Assembly: GCA_965230935.1 (NCBI GenBank)
Contig: OZ246400.1
Location: forward strand, 758,359 to 822,358
Direction: 5' to 3'
DNA length: 64,000 nt
Origin: an uncultured Gammaproteobacteria bacterium
GTDB lineage: Bacteria > Patescibacteriota > Patescibacteriia > Magasanikbacterales > JBBTQS01
The translations under genes were made by a program, and so were the position numbers. Below are positions 5,748 to 19,826 of the stretch, one piece after another; position 1 is the first letter of the stretch; every line of letters begins with the position of its first letter. The notes below the pieces were generated by a model that did no database searches, was not told where the DNA came from, and was given only the letters and a program-made list of their open reading frames with translations.

Positions 5748-5762
5748 GATCACGCATTCAAT

Positions 5763-5836
5763 CGCGGGATAGAGCAATTGGCAGCTCGCCAGGCCCATAA
5801 CCTGGAGGTTGGGGGTTCGAGTCCCTCTCCCGCAAC
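5763..5836 (+). tRNA. tRNA-Met, anticodon CAT, with initiator (fMet) features
   Basis: Manual cloverleaf: acceptor stem CGCGGGA/TCCCGCA with a C1:A72 mismatch, D-stem GAGC/GCTC with A11:U24, anticodon stem CCAGG/CCTGG with loop CCCATAA (anticodon CAT), T-arm GGGGG-TTCGAGT-CCCTC and discriminator A. CCA is not encoded. Confidence 0.8.
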
Positions 5837-5854
5837 ATATATACATATATCAGA

Positions 5855-5886
5855 AGACCACAGCGTCAATGCTGTGGTCTTTTGGT
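5855..5886 (+). terminator. Intrinsic terminator after tRNA-fMet
   Basis: Perfect 10-bp stem AGACCACAGC / GCTGTGGTCT with loop GTCAAT, followed by TTTT. Confidence 0.7.
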
Positions 5887-5900
5887 TGTGTGTTGATTTG

Positions 5901-6596
5901 TCAGCGAGCGAGCGGGATCACGGCGCCACGTTCGATCTCCTCACGCGTCGGCGGCCAGGTGATGGCACCGGGGCAGCTCATGTCCTCGAATCCGCTGAGG
6001 CTGTTGTACAGATCGTGGGCGAACTGGTAGTTCGCGACCGAGACGTCGGTCGCGGTCCGTTCCTCAACAGTGCACGTCTGGTCGGTGGGCGGCGGATTGT
6101 CCGAGTCTGCGCACTCTTGATCGAACACACAGCCAGACCCAAACCTGTAGGCCCACTCCTTGATCGCGCACCGTTGCATGGCCCGCGACCAGTTGCACCA
6201 CTGGGGTGAGGGGTCTTGCGGGTGATACTCCTGGATCGAGAAGTAGAAGGTCGCCCAGACCAGCTCGTAGAGGAGCTCCCGGAGCTTCGGGTTCTTGGTC
6301 TTGAGGATCTTGCCCGGCGGATGTTTTTTGCCGGTCTCCTCGTCCACCTTGTGGCCCATGGTGAAAGCCACCATGCTGGTGTAGGATCGACGCACTACGG
6401 CGCCGACCACGTGGTTGAGGATGTTGCGATCGGCCTTGCTCAGCGACGTGTACTCGATGCCGGCATGCTGCAGAATCCGCTCCTGCAGCGCGGACTTGGC
6501 CTGTCGGTACTCGGCGCTACCGCGCTTGGGGGGTTTGGCCAGCGCGCCGTTGCTGAGCAGCGCGCATACAATGAACAAAAGAATAGTGCGGGGCAC
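5901..6596 (-). CDS. GC-rich secreted Cys-rich hypothetical protein with an N-terminal signal peptide; probably starts at GTG
   Basis: The ORF is about 62% GC against a backbone of about 45% GC. An in-frame GTG at 6596 is preceded by AAGGAG with a 5-nt spacer, which gives a classic signal peptide (PRTILLFIVCALLSNGALA). The longer ATG-initiated ORF (to 6647) adds 17 residues that do not look like a signal. The mature part is Cys-rich. No family was recognised. Confidence 0.65.
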   Translation of the reverse strand: MPRTILLFIVCALLSNGALAKPPKRGSAEYRQAKSALQERILQHAGIEYTSLSKADRNILNHVVGAVVRRSYTSMVAFTMGHKVDEETGKKHPPGKILKTKNPKLRELLYELVWATFYFSIQEYHPQDPSPQWCNWSRAMQRCAIKEWAYRFGSGCVFDQECADSDNPPPTDQTCTVEERTATDVSVANYQFAHDLYNSLSGFEDMSCPGAITWPPTREEIERGAVIPLAR

Positions 6597-6714
6597 GAGA
6601 TCTCCTTGGTCGGGGTGCGAATGAGTCGTGCACCAGGTGGAATGCACTCTGGTGCTCGACTGTCCTGACGCTATACTATTGTAACGGTTTTGTCAAGGAG
6701 ACAGGCACCTTTGC

Positions 6715-7143
6715 ATGTTTAGAAACGCTAGGGTACAATCTATGTGTTCACACCCTATGACAAATGGTTTGAGAAAATTTACTGTTGGCACGCTATTGGT
6801 GATATATGCGGCTTTTAGTTTTCCGATTTTTGGTCATGCCGCTACCATGACTACGCATAGCATGCCAATGCCTATGCATGAGCAGATGAATGGATGTGAT
6901 GATATGGGACAGTGTATGGGTACAGTTGGACAGGTAGCTGAGCAGGCGTGTATTGATCATTGTATTAGCGCAATACAACAATTCTCAGAACAAACAGCAC
7001 CAACTCTTTTTGCACTGATGATCGTGTTGTGCATGGTGGCAATGGCCTTTGCTCTTGTTCGAGCGATTCAGGTATTTGTCTCGTCCACCTATTGGCGCGG
7101 AAATTCATTACATCTTTTTACTACGATTCAATTATTAGAGTAG
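6715..7143 (+). CDS. Small Met/His/Cys-rich membrane protein, a putative copper-binding protein
   Basis: Met-rich motif HSMPMPMHEQM, a Cys cluster (GCDDMGQCMG, ACIDHCI) and a C-terminal TM helix. It lies immediately upstream of the copper ATPase/chaperone genes. Confidence 0.5.
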   Translation: MFRNARVQSMCSHPMTNGLRKFTVGTLLVIYAAFSFPIFGHAATMTTHSMPMPMHEQMNGCDDMGQCMGTVGQVAEQACIDHCISAIQQFSEQTAPTLFALMIVLCMVAMAFALVRAIQVFVSSTYWRGNSLHLFTTIQLLE

Positions 7144-7147
7144 CGCG

Positions 7148-7164
7148 TACTACATTGTGTAGTA
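7148..7164 (+). promoter_or_regulatory. Perfect inverted repeat TACTACA-TTG-TGTAGTA; candidate metalloregulator operator (cop-box-like TACAnnnTGTA) upstream of the copper cluster
   Basis: A 7-bp perfect arms palindrome sits 19 nt upstream of the 7183 start codon. The core TACA...TGTA resembles CopY-type operators. Confidence 0.4.
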
Positions 7165-7182
7165 ATTCATAACGCATACTCT

Positions 7183-8586
7183 ATGGCAAAGAAAACGCAA
7201 TCGTTTCAGATTGCAGGAATGACTTGCACGAGTTGTGAAGTCATTATTGAGCGAAAGCTCAAAAAAGTTGAAGGAGTGATTGATGCGCAGGTAACCCATT
7301 CCACTGGGCGATGTATTGTCACCACGGCATCAGGAAGTTACGTCAAGCGAGATCATATTATCGACGCTTTGGCAGATACCGAATACGCCTTTACCAATTC
7401 AGGACGCGACATTGATCGCCCAACCAGTTGGCGTAATCTCTTGAAAATCGGGGTCACGTTTATTGTGGTGTATATTGTTGCGACGCGTCTGGGGCTTCTT
7501 GCCTTTGATACGGCAATTGGGGACTCGATCAGTTATGCTGGTGCATTTGGCATTGGGCTAATTGCCTCAGTCTCCTCATGTATTGCAGTGGTTGGCGGGT
7601 TAGTACTCACGTTTACTGCTACCACAAAACGGTTGAATGAAGATGTCTCAAAGTGGCAGCTCTTTCGTGCCCACTTGTTCTTTAACAGTGGAAGGTTGCT
7701 TGGGTATTTTTTCCTAGGTGGTCTTGTAGCAATACTTGGTGCAGCAATAACGCCGTCATTACGAACCATGGGTTTGATCTCACTGGTTGCGGCGTTGGTA
7801 ATGGTGCTGCTTGCACTTGATCTTCTGGGATTAGGGGGCTCGAAAAAATGGATTCCGAGGATGCCAAAGAAATGGAGTCATTGGATTCATGATATAGCTG
7901 AACGAGGTGAGTGGTGGATTCCATTCTTACTTGGGGCATTAACGTTTTTTCTCCCATGTGGATTTACGCAATCCATGCAGTTGTATGCACTCACCACCGG
8001 AAGCTTTACTGAAGGTGCATTAACATTATTGTTTTTTGCACTTGGAACACTCCCTGCACTTTTGGGAATTGCCGCATTGGCAAGTGTGGCGTCTTCAAGA
8101 GGAAAAGCGTATCGGTGGTTTATGGTAGTTTCCGGTTGTATTGTATTACTCCTTGGGGTATATAATGTAAAAAACAGCATGAACTTACTTGGGATTAATG
8201 TACAAAGCTGGTTTTCCTCAGATGATGGTGTAGTGAATGTTCCGATTGCAGTAGCCCAGGGAGTACAGGTGGTAGACATGGCAGTATCAGGAATTGATTA
8301 TGTGCCAAGTAGAATCACGATTCAAAAAGGAGTTCCCGTACGGTGGGAAGTGGATGGTTCTGGTGCGGTAGGGTGTACTTCAGTGTTGGCGATTCCATCA
8401 CTTGGAATCTCTCGGCCACTTACGCGGACAGGAAAAACCGTTATCGAGTTTACGCCAACCAAGACCGGGAGACTGCCTTTTACTTGTGGGATGGGCATGG
8501 CCTATGGGGAGTTCACTGTGGTTGAAGCTGCGCCGAGTGCGCCAGTTGGATCAACCTGTAATTCACAAATACAAAGTTGTACATAA
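7183..8586 (+). CDS. HMA-domain (MTCxxC) polytopic membrane protein with a C-terminal cupredoxin-like domain; putative copper handling or transport protein
   Basis: N-terminal GMTCTSCEVIIE heavy-metal-associated motif, about 8 predicted TM helices including LPCGFTQSM, and a C-terminal beta-rich domain with GCTSVL...FTCGMGMAYGEF resembling a cupredoxin fold. Located in the cop cluster. Confidence 0.6.
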   Translation: MAKKTQSFQIAGMTCTSCEVIIERKLKKVEGVIDAQVTHSTGRCIVTTASGSYVKRDHIIDALADTEYAFTNSGRDIDRPTSWRNLLKIGVTFIVVYIVATRLGLLAFDTAIGDSISYAGAFGIGLIASVSSCIAVVGGLVLTFTATTKRLNEDVSKWQLFRAHLFFNSGRLLGYFFLGGLVAILGAAITPSLRTMGLISLVAALVMVLLALDLLGLGGSKKWIPRMPKKWSHWIHDIAERGEWWIPFLLGALTFFLPCGFTQSMQLYALTTGSFTEGALTLLFFALGTLPALLGIAALASVASSRGKAYRWFMVVSGCIVLLLGVYNVKNSMNLLGINVQSWFSSDDGVVNVPIAVAQGVQVVDMAVSGIDYVPSRITIQKGVPVRWEVDGSGAVGCTSVLAIPSLGISRPLTRTGKTVIEFTPTKTGRLPFTCGMGMAYGEFTVVEAAPSAPVGSTCNSQIQSCT

Positions 8587-8592
8587 CATACT

Positions 8593-8805
8593 ATGAAAAT
8601 CTATACGTATCGTATCGACGGTATGACCTGTCATGCGTGTGAATCCTTGATCACTATGGATTTGGAGGATGCAGGGTTACCAAAACCTGAATCGATTTCT
8701 GCTACAGCAGGAGAGGTCAAAATTGGTCTTGAAGAATCTCAAGTTGAATCAGTACGAGCGGCAATTGAATCAAGTGGGAAATACACGGTAACCAGCATCG
8801 TATGA
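8593..8805 (+). CDS. copZ: Copper chaperone CopZ-like HMA domain protein
   Basis: 70 aa with a GMTCHACE metal-binding motif; directly upstream of the P-type ATPase and overlapping it in ATGA fashion. Confidence 0.8.
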   Translation: MKIYTYRIDGMTCHACESLITMDLEDAGLPKPESISATAGEVKIGLEESQVESVRAAIESSGKYTVTSIV

Positions 8806-11060
8806 GTAACACAACGAAACAGTTTGATGTAACTGGCATGACCTGTGCGTCATGCGTTGCGATTATTGAGCGTGCGATTGGTAAGGTAGATGGGGTTGAT
8901 TCAGTGGCGGTTAATATTGCCACTGAAAAAGCTACCGTTGGTTTTGATTCAGCAAAAGTAAATCTTGAAACGCTCAATACCGCGCTTGGCGCACATGGCT
9001 ACACGTTTGTACAAAAGGACGTCGATACAAAACAAGAAGCAGATAGTACTGCGGTAGCAGAAGTACGCGCCTTGCGAAAAGTGGCACTCCCTGCGTTTGT
9101 GGCAGCAGCATTGTTGTTTGTCGCCATGATTATTGAGTTGAGCATGCAGGCGGTTGGATTAGAATTTTTTGTACCGATGCGACAATGGCATGTGTTGCAA
9201 TTTATCATCGCAACGCCGGTGTTGTTTTTGGCCGGAGGAAGATTTTTTGCCGGAGTGTGGCGATTTATCCGTTATGGAAGAGCTGACATGAACTCGCTTG
9301 TTGGGATTGGAACCATTGTGGCGTATGTCTATAGCACGGCAATCTTGTTCTTACCCCAACTACAAACGCAACTGGGATTGCCATCAGTAGTGTACTTTGA
9401 TGCCACAATTGTAGTAATCGGTTTTGTGCTGTTTGGAAAGTATCTTGAAGGACGATCGAAGATGAAGACCGGGCAAGCGATTCAGTCGTTGCTCAAACTT
9501 CAAGCGCGTATTGCCCATGTGCAGCGTGACGGAAAGATAGTTGATCTTCCGATTGAAGAGGTGCAAGTAGGTGATTTGTGTGTAGTGAAAGTTGGTGAGA
9601 AAATCCCAATCGATGGGATTATCACAGAAGGTTCATCCCACCTTGATGAAGCTATGATTACCGGGGAAAGTATGCCGGTGAAGCGTGAGGTTGGTGATGC
9701 CGTCATTGGTGCCACGATTAATACCGAAGCAGTGCTTACTATTGAGGCTACCGCAATCGGGGGAAATACCGTGTTAGCGCAGATTGTTAAGATGGTACAA
9801 GAGGCTCAAGGGTCTAAAGCCCCTATTCAACAATTTGCTGATACGATCTCTGCATACTTTGTCCCAGCGGTTGTGGTGATTGCCGTGGTGTCAGTTGTGC
9901 TCTGGCTTACGGTTGGGAGTAATCTCCTTGGGTTTGAAGCAGTGATTCCGATTGCGATCTCTGCACTGGTTGGGGTATTGGTTATTGCTTGTCCGTGTGC
10001 GCTTGGGTTGGCGACACCGACCGCAATTATTGTTTCAACCGGGACAGCAGCACGCAATGGACTTCTCATTAAGAACGCCGAAAGTTTAGAACGTGCGCAC
10101 GCAGTAGACACCATTGTCTTTGACAAGACCGGAACACTTACCCAAGGCTCTCCAACAGTCACTGACGTGGTCGCTGTAGATGGAAGTGATAAGCAGGAGA
10201 TTGCACGATATGCTGCTTCAGTGGAGAACATGTCCTCGCATCCCCTTGGTGCTGCTATTGTTGCATATGCACATGATGCCGATATGGATTTGGTTGATGT
10301 GCGTGATGCGACCGAGGTTGCTGGAATGGGGATTTATGCAACGATACAGAAAAAACAATGGATTGTGGGAACGACCACACTACTTACCCAATCCGGGGTA
10401 ACGATCAACGATGCACTGGTTTCTCAGACGACTGCTTTGCAAGAGCAAGGAAAGACGGTGGTGCATGTAGCACAAGGAAAGAAACACGTTGGTATTATCG
10501 CGATTACTGATGTGATTAAGGACAATGCAATTGCTGGCGTGTCGCAACTTCATAAACTCGGTGTCCGTGTCGTTATGCTTACCGGTGATAATACCAAGAC
10601 CGCAGAAGCGATTGCACAACAAGCGAGTATTGATGAAGTGCATGCTGAGTTGAGGCCAGAAGATAAAGCAAACATTATCAAAGAGCTGCAAAAGAAAGGA
10701 CGAGTAGTTGCTATGGTTGGTGATGGAATTAATGATGCACCTGCTCTTGCGCAATCAGACGTAGGAATTGCAATGAGTACCGGTACTGATGTGGCAATCG
10801 AGTCTGCTGATATTACGGTGCTGCATGGAGACATTACCAAAGTGGTGGATGCATTGCGATTATCCCGACGGACATTGCGGGTGATTAAGCAGAATTTGTT
10901 CTGGGCGTTCTTTTATAATGTCATTGGTATCCCGCTTGCCGCAGGATTGTTCTATCCAGTATTTGGGTGGCTACTCAATCCCGCATTTGCCGGAATGGCC
11001 ATGGCGTTTAGTTCGGTATCAGTGATTACCAATTCATTGCGACTGCGGCGATTCAAGTGA
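8802..11060 (+). CDS. copA: Copper-translocating P1B-type ATPase
   Basis: N-terminal HMA GMTCASCVAIIE, the CPCALGLATP transmembrane metal site, the DKTGTLT phosphorylation motif and the GDGINDAP hinge. Confidence 0.95.
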   Translation: MSNTTKQFDVTGMTCASCVAIIERAIGKVDGVDSVAVNIATEKATVGFDSAKVNLETLNTALGAHGYTFVQKDVDTKQEADSTAVAEVRALRKVALPAFVAAALLFVAMIIELSMQAVGLEFFVPMRQWHVLQFIIATPVLFLAGGRFFAGVWRFIRYGRADMNSLVGIGTIVAYVYSTAILFLPQLQTQLGLPSVVYFDATIVVIGFVLFGKYLEGRSKMKTGQAIQSLLKLQARIAHVQRDGKIVDLPIEEVQVGDLCVVKVGEKIPIDGIITEGSSHLDEAMITGESMPVKREVGDAVIGATINTEAVLTIEATAIGGNTVLAQIVKMVQEAQGSKAPIQQFADTISAYFVPAVVVIAVVSVVLWLTVGSNLLGFEAVIPIAISALVGVLVIACPCALGLATPTAIIVSTGTAARNGLLIKNAESLERAHAVDTIVFDKTGTLTQGSPTVTDVVAVDGSDKQEIARYAASVENMSSHPLGAAIVAYAHDADMDLVDVRDATEVAGMGIYATIQKKQWIVGTTTLLTQSGVTINDALVSQTTALQEQGKTVVHVAQGKKHVGIIAITDVIKDNAIAGVSQLHKLGVRVVMLTGDNTKTAEAIAQQASIDEVHAELRPEDKANIIKELQKKGRVVAMVGDGINDAPALAQSDVGIAMSTGTDVAIESADITVLHGDITKVVDALRLSRRTLRVIKQNLFWAFFYNVIGIPLAAGLFYPVFGWLLNPAFAGMAMAFSSVSVITNSLRLRRFK

Positions 11061-13999: not shown

Positions 14000-14102
14000 A
14001 GGGATTATGATACCATCATGGTATCAAAGATTATGGTATCTGAGTAGGGAGTGATAGAGAAGAAAAAATCCCAGTTCTGGGATTTTTTCTACCCTCCTCT
14101 TT

Positions 14103-14148
14103 TAGAGCGGCAAACCGGGTTCGAACCGGCGACCTCATCCTTGGCAAG
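14103..14148 (-). repeat. Distal 46-nt direct repeat of the tRNA-Gly 3' half (att site), with the probable ancestral tRNA terminator hairpin next to it
   Basis: TAGAGCGGCAAACCGGGTTCGAACCGGCGACCTCATCCTTGGCAAG matches 45 of 46 positions of tRNA-Gly from the anticodon loop to the CCA end (19751-19796). The flanking hairpin AAAATCCCAG-TTC-TGGGATTTT is at 14070-14092. Confidence 0.85.
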
Positions 14149-14307
14149 TATTCCTAAAAGACAGGAGGCACCCGGCAGGCAACGGAGCGACCGTTGTGCG
14201 GGGTTGATTAGTACAAGAAGATTAGCATTAAGAAATTTACGCTGTCAAATTAATGGAATTCAAAACACCCAGCCGGTTGGCCGAGTGTCTCGGTTGTTGT
14301 TGAATTG

Positions 14308-16557
14308 TTAGTCCCTCTGCGATTTGCCAAGGAACGTGTCCCAGTTTAACCAATCATCCTTGTAAGTTCTACGCGGCGTGCTTGGTAGCTGTTTCACGTT
14401 GCTTGCCAACTCTTCGTACTCCGATTTACTACCCACTTTCTTGGACTGGACGAACGCCGAAGCTATTTCGTAGTCCCAGAAACGAGCAGAGCGTCCTCGG
14501 AGTTTGCTCTTGTGAGTTCCCAGAAAAGTTGACCAGTCCACCCAATCGTCCTCGTAGACAACGTCTGGATGTCGAGGTAGGCATTTCGGTTTGGGAAGAC
14601 CTCTGCGCAGCTCCCTGTATGAAGGTTCCGTGGTGACCCCGTTATCTCTTACGAACTTAACGGCATCAGCATACGGAAGGAGGTGGGATCGACGTCCTGC
14701 TTCTTCCCTCCGCCTTTCCTTCCCCAGGAACATGCCCCAATCCACCCAATCCTCACTGTAAGTTCGGTTTGGATTACTCGGGAGGCTTGCAGTTCGCGAA
14801 GCCAGCTCCTGGTATAAAGACTTGGATGTCACCCCTTCAGCACGAGCCAGAGCGGAAGCCGCTCGATAGTCGTAGAATTCTTGACCACCCCACACCTTTC
14901 CTGTGCCACAGAAGTGGGGCCAGCCACGCCACTCGTCGCTGTAGAATTTCTTGGGGTTTTGAGGTAGACGACGGTCTTTGCGGTAGTGCTGTTGGTACTG
15001 CGTAGAGTTCAAGACTCTCGGTCGCAGTCGCCTAAGAGCAGTCATCGCTTCCCCCATCGTGGAGTAAAGTTCGACCACGACCTTATCAGCAGCGGCCAGG
15101 ATGTCGACCATCTCTTCGGAGAACAGAATCTTGAAGCCGGCAGCGATGATCACGCTCTTGCGATTACCTCCACCACCTCCACCTGGTTCGTCCTCCTCTT
15201 CGTCCTCGTCGGAATCAGCCTCAGCCTCGCTGTCGCCGTCCTCCTCTTCGTCCTCGTCGGAATCAGCCTCAGCCTCGCTGTCGCCGTCGTCAAGTCCAGG
15301 TTTCGGCTTCAAGTGGCCACCCCAATCCTCGACACTCACGCCGTCCTCCGAGTAGGATTTCGGATCGAAGTCGGGAGTAGCACCGTAGTCCTCGAGGAAA
15401 CCAGCAATCATCTGCAGACGTCGAACGTTTCCGACGAAGTCCAGGACAATCACGGTTTTTTCTGCGTTGCGCAGACCCCGACCCAACTGCTGAGTCCAGA
15501 TTCGAACAGAGTCCGTGACCCGGAGAAACACGACAAGCTCAGCGTCAGGGATGTCCATCCCTTCGTTGAACATGTTGATTACCAGGATGGTTTGCAGATC
15601 CCCCTCTCGGAAGTCGTGCAGAATCGCATCCAAGCCTCCTTCCGCCTTGGAGTGAAACGGAACGGCGTCAGGCATAAACTCGTTCACAACCTCGATGTGC
15701 TTCACGTCCCGACAGAAGATGATGGTCTTCTTACTGGCTCCCTGCTCTTTCCTGATGATTCGGCATTGCTCCTCGAGAGACTCCTCGAGGAACACACTGC
15801 GGTTGATGTCCGCAATACTGACGAGTCGATCTCCTTCGTCGAGGCGCCGTAGAAGCTCTCTGAGCTTGGCCTCGTCGAGGTTGTCCGACATGAGCCGGTA
15901 GTCCAGATAGGCCAGATACCCAGGTGGCTGGGTTTCGGCCATCCGGAGCGCTTGCATCAGGGTGAGTTGGAACACTGGTCGGCCAAAGACTTCGTCGGTG
16001 TCCCAGGTTGTCGTGTCCGCACGCTCTGGTGTGGCGGTAAGACCGACCGTGAAGGTCGCACCCGAGAAGTACTCCAATACTCCCAGGTAAGTCTCGGCCG
16101 GCGCGTGATGACACTCGTCCACGATGATGAGGGTGAACTCATCCTTCGTGTATCGGGAGAGCCGATTCCCCATCCCTTGGAATGTGGTGAACAGTACGTC
16201 GGCGTCCGGATTCTCGGTTTCCTTGCTGCAGATGATTCCGGTCGTGAAACCAGTCCCCGCAAGCGTGGAAGCGAAGTCACCTTTTCTTGCCTGACGCATC
16301 GGACCGGTTTGGTCCACCATGAAAAGAACACGCCCACCATGATACTGGAGCCAGTTACGTACGAACTCCGCAATGGTGAACGTCTTGCCAAGGCCGGTGG
16401 CCATGACAACGAGCGCTCGCTTCTGTCCCTGCACGTATGCTGCCGTGAGTGCCACGTTACAGCACAGCTGGTAGGGACGGAGCACCTTCTTTGCCTTTGC
16501 AGGCTTACTTGCTGTCATGATCACCCTCCTACGAGTGCCCAGTTGTTGATGGTCCAA
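14308..16557 (-). CDS. SF2 (DEAD/DEAH, type III restriction Res-like) helicase with a poly-acidic linker and four C-terminal ~55-aa Trp-rich repeats carrying the motif Y-x-[DE]-[DE]-W-x-x-W-x-x-F-[LC]-G
   Basis: Helicase motifs LRPYQ, MATGLGKTF (Walker A), IIVDECHH (DExH) and TATP, plus helicase-C motifs QxxGRGxR. The linker contains DGDSEAEADSDEDEEED twice. The repeats are FYSDEWRGWPHFCG, YSEDWVDWGMFLG, YEDDWVDWSTFLG and YKDDWLNWDTFLG. Confidence 0.8.
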   Translation of the reverse strand: MDHQQLGTRRRVIMTASKPAKAKKVLRPYQLCCNVALTAAYVQGQKRALVVMATGLGKTFTIAEFVRNWLQYHGGRVLFMVDQTGPMRQARKGDFASTLAGTGFTTGIICSKETENPDADVLFTTFQGMGNRLSRYTKDEFTLIIVDECHHAPAETYLGVLEYFSGATFTVGLTATPERADTTTWDTDEVFGRPVFQLTLMQALRMAETQPPGYLAYLDYRLMSDNLDEAKLRELLRRLDEGDRLVSIADINRSVFLEESLEEQCRIIRKEQGASKKTIIFCRDVKHIEVVNEFMPDAVPFHSKAEGGLDAILHDFREGDLQTILVINMFNEGMDIPDAELVVFLRVTDSVRIWTQQLGRGLRNAEKTVIVLDFVGNVRRLQMIAGFLEDYGATPDFDPKSYSEDGVSVEDWGGHLKPKPGLDDGDSEAEADSDEDEEEDGDSEAEADSDEDEEEDEPGGGGGGNRKSVIIAAGFKILFSEEMVDILAAADKVVVELYSTMGEAMTALRRLRPRVLNSTQYQQHYRKDRRLPQNPKKFYSDEWRGWPHFCGTGKVWGGQEFYDYRAASALARAEGVTSKSLYQELASRTASLPSNPNRTYSEDWVDWGMFLGKERRREEAGRRSHLLPYADAVKFVRDNGVTTEPSYRELRRGLPKPKCLPRHPDVVYEDDWVDWSTFLGTHKSKLRGRSARFWDYEIASAFVQSKKVGSKSEYEELASNVKQLPSTPRRTYKDDWLNWDTFLGKSQRD
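15193..15288. repeat. Exact 48-bp tandem duplication (two copies) inside the helicase gene, encoding the 16-aa acidic unit DGDSEAEADSDEDEEE
   Basis: CTCCTCTTCGTCCTCGTCGGAATCAGCCTCAGCCTCGCTGTCGCCGTC occurs at 15193-15240 and again at 15241-15288 with no mismatch. Confidence 0.9.
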
Positions 16558-16634
16558 ATCTCAGGCGAATGTCTGAGCAAGACCGGAAGCCCCAAGTGGG
16601 CACGGAGTAGGAGGTGATTGACGTCCTAAAGATA

Positions 16635-16691
16635 CCTATGGCGACATAGGTAAGGACACAAAATCATAGCATAATTTAGCCAATATGTCAA
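16635..16691 (-). promoter_or_regulatory. Minus-strand promoter TTGACA-N17-TATGAT for the helicase gene, with the palindrome ACCTATG-GCGA-CATAGGT at the predicted start region (candidate operator)
   Basis: Read on the minus strand: TTGACA (16691-16686), a 17-nt spacer, then TATGAT (16668-16663). The 7-bp arm palindrome at 16635-16652 lies 10-27 nt downstream of the -10 element. The motif TTTAGCCAA occurs twice upstream. Confidence 0.55.
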
Positions 16692-16921
16692 GTATAAATG
16701 ATCATTAGGGATGTGTACATTGGCATGGTCTAACCAATTTAGCCAAATAATGGGTAGCCAGCGACCTCACCCCTGGAAAAGATGTGTGGTAAAAAAGTGA
16801 AAGATGATGTGCCAAATCACAAGATCGTTGATTGAACACGATTTTCGTTAAATTTTTTTTGCCTAAAACAAAAGAAAAAACCCCTGTTCAGGGATTCCTT
16901 CTTCCTCCTCCTCTGGAGCGG

Positions 16922-16967
16922 CAAACCGGGTTCGAACCGGCGACCTCATCCTTGGCAAGCGTCCCGA
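16922..16967 (-). repeat. Second 46-nt direct repeat of the tRNA-Gly 3' half (internal att site between elements A and B)
   Basis: TGGAGCGGCAAACCGGGTTCGAACCGGCGACCTCATCCTTGGCAAG matches tRNA-Gly positions 32-76 exactly. The adjacent roughly 70 nt (16968-17035) resemble the 14149-14215 sequence and include a CAACGG-N5-CCGTTG hairpin. Confidence 0.9.
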
Positions 16968-17314
16968 AAAGAGAGGAGGGAACTTTGCAAGCAACGGCAG
17001 AGCCGTTGTGCAGGGTTGATTAGTTTCTCCATTCTACCAAGACGAGGCTGTTTCCGTCAACTCACCGGAATGATTATATAAAATCTGCTGTCGAACTACA
17101 AGACGACCCCAAAGGGTCGTCTTGTTTGTGTTCAACTGCCACCGCAGGGCTGTGGATAAGCCATGCATCTCGCGGTACGTCTCAAAACCAACGAGTTGCT
17201 CTATGCTAATGGCAGGCCGATGGTCCTGCCACCCCCTGGCTGCGACGACTGGCTTTGCGGAACCCATCATCTACACGAAAGGAGGTGACCCACGACTGTA
17301 CAGCATTCGGCTGA

Positions 17315-17638
17315 ATGCTGTCAAATAACCCTATGAAATCACAAATGAATCCGGTCGGTCGGCCGCTTGTGTTGCGCGTGCGCGGGCTGCGTACCTGTCG
17401 TCTTGGCGATGCCATGACTCAGCGTCAGCTCGCCGACCTTGCAGGCATCACGCTTAAGCGCCTTCAGCGTCTTGAGACCATGCGCGTAATGCCACATGAG
17501 TTGCAGGAGCTTCACGCGCTTGCCCTCGCGTTGCAGGTGCCGATGGAGCAGCTGTTCCACCCGCAGTGGGGCGAAGACCACCGAACCATCATCGAGGACA
17601 GGCGGTCGGTCTTGGCTGCAGGTCGTCAGGCCGCGTGA
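17315..17638 (+). CDS. XRE-family helix-turn-helix transcriptional regulator (Cro/CI-like); the true start may be an internal Met
   Basis: HTH segment MTQRQLADLAGITLKRLQRLE; small size; located within integrated element B. Confidence 0.55.
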   Translation: MLSNNPMKSQMNPVGRPLVLRVRGLRTCRLGDAMTQRQLADLAGITLKRLQRLETMRVMPHELQELHALALALQVPMEQLFHPQWGEDHRTIIEDRRSVLAAGRQAA

Positions 17639-17815
17639 CGCTGGTGGCGCCGGTTGGGCGAGAACGCCCTTGAGGGTTCAGTTTCTTTGTATCGTCGTCT
17701 CATGCTGTACTTTCCAGTTGGCGAGACCCTGCTGGCCCTATCCGCCATAGATTCGTTAGAAGAAATCAGCGAGACCCGCGGCGAACGCCGATACAAGGCG
17801 TAGGCTTGACAAAGT

Positions 17816-17844
17816 ACATAAAATGTGTTATGCTGCTCCAAACA
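17816..17844 (+). promoter_or_regulatory. Near-consensus sigma70 promoter TTGACA-N17-TATGCT inside element B, driving an apparently noncoding stretch
   Basis: TTGACA 17816-17821, a 17-nt spacer, TATGCT 17839-17844. It forms an AT-rich patch inside GC-rich DNA. Confidence 0.55.
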
Positions 17845-18298
17845 CACTCCTCCATCCACGGCAAAAGTGGCCGAGAATCCGCCAAACTGCGCGCCAACCG
17901 AGCGGTCAGAACGCTGGAAACTGTGCTCTCGACATGAGATGAACGAGGACGTCACCGGGGTGACCCATGTGCGCAGCATCGCTGCTCACGCGGGTCGTCC
18001 TGGACGAGGGGTGAGACTCGGCTGAGTCCCTGACGGTGTCCTCGGCTTATGTCCGCTCCGAACGTTCCTGTCCTACCAGGACGCGCCCAGGGCGACCTCC
18101 ACTCAACGGCTCTGACTGTCCAACCAGTCGGAGTCGTCTTTTGTTTTGGTCAAAACCGGGGCAGAGCATGGACTGCCAGCCCATGTCATTGTGATTCTTG
18201 TGTTGTGGGGTCGCGCAAGAAGAAACCGCGCCCCCGCCCAGTCCCAAGGGTAATGACCACCCATGAGAAGGACGGGGACGCGGTCCGCGAGTCTCAGC

Positions 18299-18718
18299 CT
18301 ACTTGTGTGGGAGCACTCCCTTGAGAGCCTCCACCGGGAGCAGGTTCTCGACTTCTCGTCGTGCGAGTAGGTAGAACCGGTTGCCGAGTTCCTTTTGCAG
18401 TCGTTTCTTGCGTTCGGCCTTCGCCTCTTCCTCGTCGCGGTCCATCACGACGAATGCGCGCGCACAAAGCCGCTTCACGGCAATACGCGCGGCATCACTA
18501 ACGTGGGCGTCGTCGAAGGACCAGTGCTCGACGTTCGCGCCGGCGTATTCCACGAAGGAGTAGTGCACGTCCTCGACCAAGCGTGGGGCGTCAGCGTGCG
18601 CCTGCTCGTACATGCGCAAGTACTGCCGTAGGTACTGTCGGTCCGTGACACCTTCGACCCAAATGGTGGCGCTGGAAAGGTAGACGGACGTGTTGCTGCC
18701 GACGTCAATTAATTTCAA
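18299..18718 (-). CDS. Standalone TOPRIM-like domain protein (OLD-family / DUF4435-like C-terminal nuclease module), probably a remnant
   Basis: Motifs IWVEGVTDRQYL and VVMDRDEE (DxD) with the C-terminal ENLLPVEAL match the Toprim core of OLD/AriB-like nucleases. At 139 aa it is too short for a complete protein of this family, and no ATPase partner ORF is adjacent. Confidence 0.45.
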   Translation of the reverse strand: MKLIDVGSNTSVYLSSATIWVEGVTDRQYLRQYLRMYEQAHADAPRLVEDVHYSFVEYAGANVEHWSFDDAHVSDAARIAVKRLCARAFVVMDRDEEEAKAERKKRLQKELGNRFYLLARREVENLLPVEALKGVLPHK

Positions 18719-18953
18719 GTAGCGCGCCTATGCCCTACGCAAAACCACAACTCAGCGAAGCACTCCTGCGCTTCTTCTACGGCGACATGCGCTTCGACAA
18801 ACTCACCATCGTGAAGATGACCGGCTGGGACCTCAAGGAGCTCGATGCTCTGCGCAGGCAAGCTGACATTCGCAAAGGGGAGCCAACGGCAGGGCCTCTT
18901 GAGTACGAACACCTGGACCAGCTCGCCACGCGAATCAGCGCCGCGCCACATTA

Positions 18954-19565
18954 CTACGGCAATCGTCGTGCTCCTTGGGTGCGCAGGAAATGGCACGAGA
19001 AGCTGCGCGCCATGGCGCTGGGCACCAGCCGGTCTTTGTCACCCTTCCCGTGACGAACCAGGATGGTGCGCTCCTCCAGGTTGACGTCGGCGCAGTCCAG
19101 CGCCAGCAGCTCACTACGTCGCAGGCCGGCGAAGATGAACAAGGAGAGCACGGCATGCGCGCGGTGCCCGGCGTAGTGGTACTTGTAGAGCTTGCGTACC
19201 ACTGAGAGCACCTGTCGTGCCTGCTGCGCTGTGAGGCTCTTGGGCAGGCTCTTGGGCAAACGCGGCTTCTCCAGGGCGCGCGCATAGTTCTTCCGCAGGA
19301 GCTTCTGCTTGATGCACCAGTCGAAAAAGGCAATCAGGCTCCTGCGGTACGTGAGGTAGGTGCGCACCTTCCAGGCGCCGGAGCTGCGGCCAAGCAGGAA
19401 GAAGGAGCGGACGTTCTTGTCCGTAATCTCGTGCAGGTACGTAGTGCCAGCGCACTTGGCATACAGGCGCACGCCTTGGCGGTAGCGCGTGATGGTGGCG
19501 CCTGAGAGCGCACGGAAGTTGATGGCCTCGTCGCAGAACGTACGAAGCGCCTGGTCAATGGTCAT
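18954..19565 (-). CDS. Tyrosine recombinase/integrase, C-terminally truncated and probably inactive
   Basis: The N-terminal SAM-like core-binding region and catalytic box I (FAGLRRSELLAL) are present, as is the beta-hairpin with catalytic Lys (RHGKGDKDRLVPS). The ORF then ends after about 30 residues in a double stop (TAG TAA), with no HxxR-H/W-Y catalytic region in any frame downstream. It lies adjacent to the tRNA-Gly 3' end. Confidence 0.7.
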   Translation of the reverse strand: MTIDQALRTFCDEAINFRALSGATITRYRQGVRLYAKCAGTTYLHEITDKNVRSFFLLGRSSGAWKVRTYLTYRRSLIAFFDWCIKQKLLRKNYARALEKPRLPKSLPKSLTAQQARQVLSVVRKLYKYHYAGHRAHAVLSLFIFAGLRRSELLALDCADVNLEERTILVRHGKGDKDRLVPSAMARSFSCHFLRTQGARRLP

Positions 19566-19750
19566 AGGGGTTGGAGTTAGTCCTGCGCAAAGCTCTTAGC
19601 TTGCGTCAGCTCCTCCATGCTAGCGGCATCATCTGCGTACCGGAAGTGCCGAGAGTGCCTTTGGGTGTCCACAGCGAGAACACAAAAGGCAGGGTTCCTT
19701 TGGGAATCCTGCCTAGATTTAGCGCAAAAATGGGCGCATGAATCTGTGTT

Positions 19751-19826
19751 TGGAGCGGCAAACCGGGTTCGAACCGGCGACCTCATCCTTGGCAAGGATG
19801 CGCTCTACCAACTGAGCTATTGCCGC
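19751..19826 (-). tRNA. tRNA-Gly, anticodon GCC, with encoded CCA
   Basis: The reverse complement reads GCGGCAATAGCTCAGTTGGTAGAGCGCATCCTTGCCAAGGATGAGGTCGCCGGTTCGAACCCGGTTTGCCGCTCCA, a canonical 76-nt cloverleaf with anticodon loop TTGCCAA. Confidence 0.95.

Follow-up and report, generated by a model that had tools for sequence, protein, structure and literature searches.

An island-borne superfamily 2 helicase with four INT_rpt repeats, a member of a large Patescibacteria family and a probable DNA-anchored translocase

We analyzed a 64,000-nucleotide stretch (hereafter the window, numbered from its first letter) of contig OZ246400.1 of assembly GCA_965230935.1, from an uncultured bacterium placed by GTDB in Patescibacteriota, and focused on a minus-strand gene at 14308..16518. 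The gene encodes an intact superfamily 2 (SF2) motor followed by an acidic linker and four Trp-rich repeats of the Pfam family INT_rpt, and its product is a member of a large, uncharacterized family of the Patescibacteria, also known as the Candidate Phyla Radiation (CPR), not a new kind of protein. The explanation that we favor, and that we hold to be probable rather than secure, is that the protein is a DNA-anchored double-stranded DNA translocase with an accessory role, recently acquired as the sole cargo of a small cassette and belonging to a family that is often transferred. The data establish what the domains are, that the motifs are intact, how the family is distributed, how the island is built and that its composition is foreign, whereas DNA binding by the repeats, translocation and the accessory role are inferred. 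Four alternatives, ranked in decreasing support as defense, action coupled to sigma factor and RNA polymerase (RNAP), housekeeping repair and element replication, are discussed below together with the evidence that bears on each of them.

The open reading frame (ORF) spans 14308..16557 on the minus strand and is open for 749 codons from a TTG, with its stop codon at 14308-14310. Judging from an AGGAGG Shine-Dalgarno (SD) sequence 6 nt upstream, translation almost certainly begins with the ATG at 16518, giving a protein of 736 aa plus the stop. The only database copy, P0001, is also 736 aa long, starts at the same ATG and is 100% identical; it was found on a 931-kb contig and on a 51.8-kb ENA contig. 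A full-length AlphaFold2 (AF2) model, built with 70 homologues as input, reached a mean predicted local distance difference test (pLDDT) score of 83.5 and shows two RecA lobes, a disordered linker and four repeats. The charge is split along the chain, with a net charge of +13 and a pI of 9.7 for the C-terminal half and a net charge of -28 for the acidic linker.

The motor (15379..16518, minus strand) was delimited by Pfam, motifs and the AF2 model and consists of two RecA-like lobes with a helical insertion. Pfam identified ResIII at 16021-16488 (E = 2e-29, 103 bits against a cut-off of 22.5) and Helicase_C at 15466-15768 (E = 3e-11, 43.9 bits against a cut-off of 23.5), both on the minus strand. 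The Q motif and motifs I, II (DECH), III and VI are intact throughout, with RPYQ at residue 27, GLGKT at 55, DECH at 147, TATP at 174 and QQLGRGLR at 356 in the 749-aa numbering, and motifs I, II, III and VI together with the two lobes place the protein among the SF2 enzymes of the ResIII/Helicase_C type. An earlier reading of the DNA, made from the sequence alone and referred to here as the sequence-only reading, had described a DExH SF2 helicase with a ResIII-type Q (RPYQ) motif, and this description holds. It had also put the complete core at about 450 aa; the core is indeed complete, but the part that folds in the AF2 model is about 380 aa long (model residues 1-380, pLDDT mostly above 90). 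In Foldseek searches with the motor, RadD was the top match at 2e-18, followed by SauUSI, XPB (archaeal XPB and XPB within TFIIH) and an HsdR fragment, with E values up to 1e-15. Sequence matches to the PDB came in the order SauUSI (E = 1.5e-30), RadD, HsdR and XPB.

The position of SauUSI, a type IV restriction enzyme, as the closest solved sequence relative raises the possibility of a defense role, in which the protein would be a type IV-restriction-like or anti-phage helicase whose INT_rpt array recognizes foreign DNA while the motor acts alone or with an unlinked nuclease. In the same direction, the best matches in PADLOC are mREase_IV (106 bits) and PbeA, and some INT_rpt helicases are fused to Mrr-type nucleases. 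Defense genes are often island-borne and compositionally foreign, as this gene is here and as many of its relatives are in their own genomes with respect to composition. However, a Pfam scan of the protein found no nuclease domain and no other effector domain, and the protein begins directly at the Q motif. The PADLOC matches cover the generic motor only, in profiles about 950 positions long (residues 37-384 against positions 234-567 of the 953 in mREase_IV). No conserved partner gene was present in the nine homologue contexts examined, and no methylase or specificity genes (hsdM/hsdS) were found in the island. With partial motor matches and no partner genes, the protein falls outside the defense systems of PADLOC-DB v2, and, having no nuclease domain, it falls outside SauUSI-like type IV restriction (mREase_IV) as well. 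The defense or anti-defense helicase proposed by the sequence-only reading is therefore unproven, and we regard it as possible but unlikely.

The C-terminal repeats, which had been described as not assignable to a named domain, match Pfam PF14882 (INT_rpt, "Integrase repeat unit") with 63.2 bits against a cut-off of 26.5. The match covers four stretches with E = 2.6e-17, far beyond chance. The units lie on the minus strand at 14902..15069 (unit 1, residues 497-552, net charge +7), 14719..14877 (unit 2, residues 561-613), 14515..14682 (unit 3, residues 626-681) and 14323..14481 (unit 4, residues 693-745), again in the 749-aa numbering. As the sequence-only reading had recognized, they are about 55 aa long and share a Trp-containing ending, Y-x-[DE]-[DE]-W-x-x-W-x-x-F-[LC]-G. 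Alignment of the four units revealed ten invariant columns (V, Y, L, P, P, Y, W, W, F and G), and the signature L-P-x-x-P-x(3)-Y-x(3)-W-x(2)-W-x(2)-F-L-G, present in tandem, together with the score above threshold places the array in the INT_rpt family. In the AF2 model each repeat is formed by two helices of about 10 residues followed by two helices of 4 residues, and the C-terminal region modelled alone gave a pLDDT of 86.8. The four units of the window are old, with 25-34% protein identity between them. At two homologous loci, L015 (7144-8126) and L016 (7178-7761), INT_rpt units are 67-92% identical in DNA with a period of 183-186 nt, indicating recent amplification of the unit there.

To follow the repeats through other proteins, a word-index search with the C-terminal 270 aa alone returned 3 unannotated matches, which reflects a limit of the index, and a profile of the four units was instead run with HMMER against 1.84 billion representatives. 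The profile retrieved 3907 cluster representatives, 335 of them with E values below 1e-30, and a single protein could hold as many as 17 units. A Pfam partner scan covered the 39 profile matches with the longest non-repeat regions and called INT_rpt in 35 of them. The partner domains were Integrase_2 (PF13009, large tyrosine recombinases) in 22 proteins and ResIII in 15, and Mrr-type nuclease domains occurred in up to 4 (Mrr_cat_2 in 4, Mrr_cat in 3). This set of partners indicates that INT_rpt is a portable accessory module of DNA-processing enzymes. In viral searches (BFVD), INT_rpt-like arrays were seen on SF2 helicases of the giant viruses Bodo saltans virus, Klosneuvirus, Catovirus and Terrestrivirus, with E values from 2e-3 to 0.15, and also in hypothetical proteins of the jumbo phages XacN1, Xoo-sp13 and Stenotrophomonas CM1/RAS14 and of a 485-kb uncultured phage (records LR745208.1, AP018399.1, MN047793.1, OP883945.1 and OP752703.1). 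The repeat profile had no match among PDB sequences, and the helix-turn-helix (HTH), Myb and sigma-like PDB entries that came up for the four-repeat model were weak, not significant, and were set aside. Homology between INT_rpt and HNH_repeat, another C-terminal array, is not claimed, the hhalign comparison of 251 against 40 units in register being not significant (probability 11.5%, P = 0.0026).

We infer from the domain identities and the repeat partners that the protein would be an ATP-driven SF2 DNA translocase or helicase with a motor akin to those of SauUSI, RadD, XPB and HsdR. A flexible acidic linker of about 70 aa would tie this motor to the four C-terminal INT_rpt modules, small four-helix units that are also found as non-catalytic arms of large tyrosine recombinases. 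The array would anchor the protein on DNA, and the motor would translocate on the adjoining duplex or branched DNA. Because no nuclease is present, the protein would not cleave the DNA but remodel it, for example by pulling loops, displacing other proteins or driving branch migration.

The linker itself is a disordered segment of 71 aa (15166..15378, minus strand; model residues 381-451, pLDDT below 50) that ends C-terminally in a run of six Gly. The spacer that includes it, counted from the DF[VIL][GAS]N motif of the motor up to unit 1, is about 120 aa long against a family median of 63 aa, and it is the most acidic of the twelve longest spacers in the family, with a D+E fraction of 0.32. The linker DNA carries an exact tandem duplication of a 48-nt unit at 15189..15288, for which Tandem Repeats Finder reported a period of 48, 2.1 copies and 100% identity, and the duplication codes for GDSEAEADSDEDEEED twice. 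Direct comparison showed that both units are identical and that the periodicity extends 4 nt further; the perfect duplication that the sequence-only reading had placed at 15193-15288 is the same repeat in another phase. Since the duplication is perfect, it must be recent. Between the linker and the repeats lies a connector made of a beta-hairpin and a helix (15070..15165, minus strand; model residues 454-480), defined by the family consensus V-x-G-x-G-F-x-F-x-F-S...V-D-L and the AF2 model and conserved across the family. By comparison, the duplication in the acidic linker and the structured leader described below are particular to this copy.

A full-length protein search returned about 4000 homologues. 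The ResIII + Helicase_C + INT_rpt architecture was found in most of the 120 listed homologues and in nearly all of the first 91, and those with names belong to Uhrbacteria, Falkowbacteria, Parcubacteria, Azambacteria or the "Patescibacteria group". In a scan of species-representative genomes, full-length matches came almost only from metagenome-assembled genomes of Patescibacteria, and motor-only matches extended to Actinobacteria, Firmicutes and others. The alignments with family members cover 93-98% of the query, many at 29-38% identity, and include the connector and the repeats, which makes the protein a member of the patescibacterial helicase-INT_rpt family. Given that this architecture is populous in Patescibacteria, the protein is not a one-off. 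The nearest full-length relative, P0002, is 36% identical, and the nearest relatives over the motor, P0003, P0006 and P0007, are 46-48% identical. The number of INT_rpt units in the family ranges from 1 to 11 with a mode of 4, and slightly more distant motors carry other C-terminal arrays, namely HNH_repeat (PF18780) and DUF4379 (PF14311).

Some helicases of the same clade are fused at the N-terminus to a complete sigma-70 factor. These are P0092, with a motor 42% identical to ours and an HNH_repeat tail, P0271, with 38% identity and INT_rpt repeats, and P0061, also with INT_rpt repeats; in P0291 and P0296, sigma region 4 is fused at the C-terminus. Members of a distant XPB-like clade of Actinobacteria, P0318 among them, are sigma-70-fused too, and further distant fusions are P0323, P0330, P0334, P0341, P0348, P0349, P0384 and P0385. 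Fusions of ResIII/XPB-like helicases with sigma-70 thus recur, with the two domains in either order, and are found in CPR as well as in Actinobacteria (e.g. Arthrobacter). A literature search found no publication on such fusions. They amount to Rosetta-stone-type evidence that suggests a link to transcription initiation, carried by a minority of members to which this protein does not belong; the Mrr-nuclease fusions would point instead to restriction-like roles.

Taken up for the protein itself, this evidence would make it a transcription-coupled factor that works with sigma-70 and RNAP, either as an XPB-like promoter translocase or as an RNAP-recycling motor, with the INT_rpt array positioning it. 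The fold matches of the motor to XPB in TFIIH pre-initiation complexes are consistent with such a function. However, the protein neither contains a sigma domain nor has a sigma gene close by, the fusions occur in a small minority of members only, and the pattern of horizontal transfer described below would be unusual for a core transcription factor. The sole sigma gene near a homologue, a sigma-70 gene at locus L009, was rejected as evidence, for the helicase downstream of it is of the unrelated HrpA/DEAH type. We consider a transcription-coupled function improbable. The wider proposal that the whole helicase-repeat family (INT_rpt, HNH_repeat and DUF4379) is a bacterial counterpart of XPB in TFIIH, serving sigma-70 and RNAP as a DNA-anchored promoter translocase, strikes us as more speculative still. 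If it were true, the sigma and region 4 fusions would represent this link made permanent, and the island copy would be an accessory that remodels transcription, can be transferred and is kept locked by its leader at the level of translation.

The gene lies in an island next to an intact tRNA-Gly(GCC) gene (19751..19826, minus strand), the integration target, which holds its 44-nt core copy at 19753-19796. Two exact 44-nt copies of the 3' part of this tRNA gene form att-like direct repeats, the distal DR1 at 14105..14148 (within a segment at 14060-14212) and the middle DR2 at 16916..16959 (within an extended segment at 16872-17024), which marks the boundary between two elements, A and B. The 153-nt segments around DR1 and DR2 are 82% identical, sharing about 70 nt towards the element and a terminator-like hairpin at the opposite flank, indicating that the region is a tandem pair of related insertions. 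Element A extends from about 14.15 to 16.9 kb (2.8 kb) with a GC content of 0.53, and the helicase gene is the only credible gene between DR1 and DR2. Element B (16960..19752, GC 0.59) is a decayed integrative element with a truncated tyrosine integrase (18954-19565, minus strand; 203 aa, catalytic profile positions 2-72 of 172), a Cro/C1-type HTH gene (17315-17638, plus strand) and an ORF (18299-18718, minus strand) whose resemblance to RloB is weak and below threshold (16.9 bits, cut-off 31.5). The flanking DNA has a GC content of 0.45-0.46. At third codon positions (GC3), the helicase gene reaches 0.64 against 0.33-0.44 for host genes, and the genes of element B, at 0.69-0.83, are more foreign in composition than the helicase. 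Of the marks of a tRNA-targeted integrative element, adjacency to a tRNA gene, direct repeats of its 3' end and atypical composition are present, whereas the fourth, an integrase of its own, is missing from element A and truncated in element B. The repeats, the gene content and the composition bear out the earlier description of the helicase as the island-borne sole gene of element A.

Element A has no integrase of its own, and its current mobility is doubtful because the neighboring integrase is broken. We favor the view that the helicase gene would be a recent accessory acquisition, the sole cargo of an integrase-less, att-flanked cassette of 2.8 kb that was inserted in tandem with the decayed integrative element at tRNA-Gly. 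The sequence-only reading had also suggested that the protein could serve replication of the element, and its best family match in any library is in fact a phage family, 'DNA helicase' phrog_16 (201 bits), and temperate phages of Streptococcus, Mycobacterium and Gordonia have related motors that carry the annotation 'DNA helicase'. These phage relatives, however, are 26-31% identical over the motor alone and more distant than the CPR family, the 2.8-kb element contains no rep or initiator gene, no primase and no origin or origin-like iterons in addition to lacking an integrase, and homologues elsewhere sit outside recognizable elements. ResIII-type SF2 enzymes are not known to be replicative helicases. 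A replication or maintenance helicase of the carrying mobile element is thus hard to credit, the least probable of the readings considered, and we do not retain this suggestion.

Several smaller observations concern the island DNA. Within element A, upstream of the promoter, a degenerate tRNA-Gly-like fragment at 16758-16784 shows 81% identity to 19774-19800 and may be the scar of an older insertion. The tRNA fragments at DR1 and DR2, flanked by CCTCCT...AGGAGG, were considered as structured RNA and rejected (z-scores of -0.5 and +0.1), and an Rfam search over 13.5-20.5 kb found nothing but tRNA-Gly.

Upstream of the gene, a sigma-70-type promoter-like site, TTGACA-17-(TG)TATGAT (16663..16691, minus strand), has an extended -10 TG and matches at 11 of 12 positions. 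Just downstream of the -10 hexamer lies the perfect palindrome ACCTATG-N4-CATAGGT (16634-16651), which has no other perfect match in the window; the sole other match has 2 mismatches, giving 2 matches within 2 mismatches against 0.13 expected. The sequence-only reading had proposed that the gene has its own promoter with an operator-like palindrome. The promoter-like site is strong. The palindrome, however, lies inside the predicted transcript and is predicted to form a leader hairpin, so that the "operator" may be an RNA element instead. The predicted leader of about 138 nt (16519..16656, minus strand) combines this 5'-terminal hairpin with a long-range stem, in which an anti-SD sequence, AUCACCUCCUAC (about 16609-16620), is predicted to pair with the SD sequence and the AUG. 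The 157-nt RNA from the start site into the first codons (16500-16656) folds with -62 kcal/mol (z = -5.1), and 0 of 200 shuffled sequences were as stable. No Rfam family matched the leader. On this predicted fold, translation of the helicase may be gated by its leader. In the same region, the 11-mer TTGGCTAAATT occurs twice on the minus strand, 63 nt apart (16673-16683 and 16736-16746), once inside the promoter spacer; within one mismatch it is found 6 times in the window against 2.1 expected, and it may be a candidate binding site for a regulator or recombinase.

We then compared the genomic contexts of homologues in nine annotated neighborhoods. In all nine, the helicase gene stands alone among housekeeping genes. 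These contexts include miaA/miaB-thrS beside a thyA/folA/dut/tmk cluster, rpoC-yebC-ruvC, polA-holA-rpsT-rmuC, der-dprA-topA, thyX-rplJL and a group of glycosyltransferases, the last kept between two related Uhrbacteria. None of the nine contains an integrase, a methyltransferase, a partner nuclease or a conserved partner gene, and there is no conserved synteny overall. In about 9 of 23 loci, the GC3 of the helicase gene exceeds that of its neighbors by 0.12-0.28. Named examples are L013 (0.71 against 0.43), L016 (0.55 against 0.31) and L002, the closest homologue (0.60 against 0.43), together with L004, L019, L015, L005 and L007. On a fine scale, the GC content rises at the gene start in all four loci inspected (L002, L004, L013 and L016) and falls at the gene end in L016 and L004 and after one further small ORF in L002; the stretch of L013 ends before any fall could show. 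The deviant GC3 of these relatives suggests that horizontal transfer is frequent. A search for direct repeats on both sides of 13 homologous genes gave none above chance, and the window copy is the only one of 14 loci (the window included) flanked by significant direct repeats, indicating that the att-flanked cassette is not a trait of the family. Taken together, these comparisons suggest that family members frequently pass between genomes, in many cases as one gene on its own, and that they do so without leaving att scars.

The solitary positions near polA/holA/rpsT, thyA/folA, rpoC/ruvC, der/dprA/topA and rplJL could also be those of a housekeeping protein, a vertically inherited fork-repair helicase of the RadD/RecG type that came to lie near a tRNA gene by chance. 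The top fold match to RadD and the wide occurrence of the family in Patescibacteria are in line with such a function. In contrast, the motor scores only 81.8 bits against the cut-off of 720 of the NCBIfam RadD model (NF053632), the homologue contexts lack conserved synteny, about 40% of the relatives are compositionally foreign, and the nearest database relative is just 36-48% identical. This copy, moreover, sits between 44-nt att repeats with a GC3 of 0.64 against about 0.4. A housekeeping helicase is in our view quite improbable. The sequence-only reading had asked whether its repeats are a well-characterized domain and its homologues reside in conserved core-genome contexts. The answer is divided on both counts: the domain has a name but is not characterized, and the homologues lie among core genes but without conserved synteny and often with foreign composition.

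Two further compositional observations concern tRNA genes. At L019, the homologue starts 161 nt after tRNA-Tyr within a higher-GC stretch of about 3.6 kb (5757-9450), near the end of which, 3.6 kb away, lies a degenerate copy of a tRNA T-arm (9434-9450); the stretch also contains a 326-aa ORF with no Pfam match. In the window, positions 6001-7000, just downstream of tRNA-Met (5763-5836), have a GC content of 0.55 against about 0.45, and this patch shows no att-type repeats and no Pfam matches for its ORFs.

Several points weigh against a DNA-anchored translocase as the explanation. In Foldseek, the four-repeat model gave nothing below E = 1 against the PDB, leaving the INT_rpt fold without a significant solved relative. 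Our literature search found no functional study of INT_rpt (PF14882) and no experiment on any member. DNA binding by the repeats is argued only from their protein partners and charge, and among the repeats only unit 1 is clearly basic. The sigma-70 and Mrr fusions of sister proteins suggest more specific roles, which this protein, lacking those domains, may or may not share. Finally, the predicted sequestration of the ribosome-binding site means that the gene may not be expressed at all in this host.

For the window alone little is at stake, since Pfam already lists the repeats and proteins of this architecture abound in CPR. The wider family is more notable: it comprises about 4000 protein matches, and INT_rpt 3907 cluster representatives, with uncharacterized function and a fold without solved relative; its genes seem to travel singly from one reduced genome to another; and some close relatives are fused to sigma factors or Mrr nucleases. 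This copy, which is intact and has four well-predicted repeats, its own promoter and a structured leader, offers a possible entry point for biochemistry. Its perfect 48-nt duplication and its single-gene cassette between att repeats are also two clear signs that this CPR genome changed very recently.

Among known systems, SauUSI, the ATP-dependent type IV restriction endonuclease of PDB entry 7CLG, is the best solved relative by sequence and matches in fold with E = 1.5e-17. Both proteins place a motor before a C-terminal region, which in SauUSI recognizes DNA; in contrast to SauUSI, the window protein has no N-terminal phospholipase D-type (PLD) nuclease, and its C-terminus is an INT_rpt array instead of the SauUSI target-recognition domain. 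With E. coli RadD (PDB 6JDE and 7R7J) and archaeal and eukaryotic XPB, it shares the two-lobe ResIII-type SF2 core. Pfam detected no RadD or XPB accessory domains, those of XPB not having been examined individually, the RadD match is confined to the motor, and the XPB/Rad25 models are matched far below their cut-offs (NF045503, 31.7 bits against 610; TIGR00603, 24.2 bits against 329). The top NCBIfam match of the motor is the EcoAI family of HsdR (NF046051, 121 bits), and the motor also matches the HsdR fragment 3H1T; with a cut-off of 550, no nuclease domain and no hsdM/hsdS nearby, the protein is not a type I HsdR.

The large tyrosine recombinases with Integrase_2 share the repeat module and its Y...W..W..FLG signature, with arrays that reach 17 units, but their catalytic domain is a recombinase where the window protein has a helicase. 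The integrase beside the helicase gene is, unlike those recombinases, an ordinary truncated Phage_integrase without INT_rpt. Element A as a whole resembles the integrase-less, att-flanked cis-mobilizable remnants (CIMEs) described for the ICESt elements of Streptococcus thermophilus: it is bounded by att-type repeats, has no integrase and adjoins another element inserted at this tRNA gene, and both elements share homologous ends. It differs in that the integrase of its neighbor is itself truncated, and elements A and B may both be fixed remnants. The closest counterparts of the protein are the ResIII + Helicase_C + INT_rpt proteins of Patescibacteria, such as P0002 and P0030, which are annotated as 'DEAD/DEAH box helicase family protein' or 'integrase repeat-containing protein' and share its domain order, motor motifs, connector and C-terminal units. 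Compared with these relatives, whose identity is at most 36% along the whole protein and 46-48% in the motor alone, the window protein has a longer, acidic and duplicated linker, and its repeats carry a W-x-x-W variant where those of the family usually read F-P-G-W.

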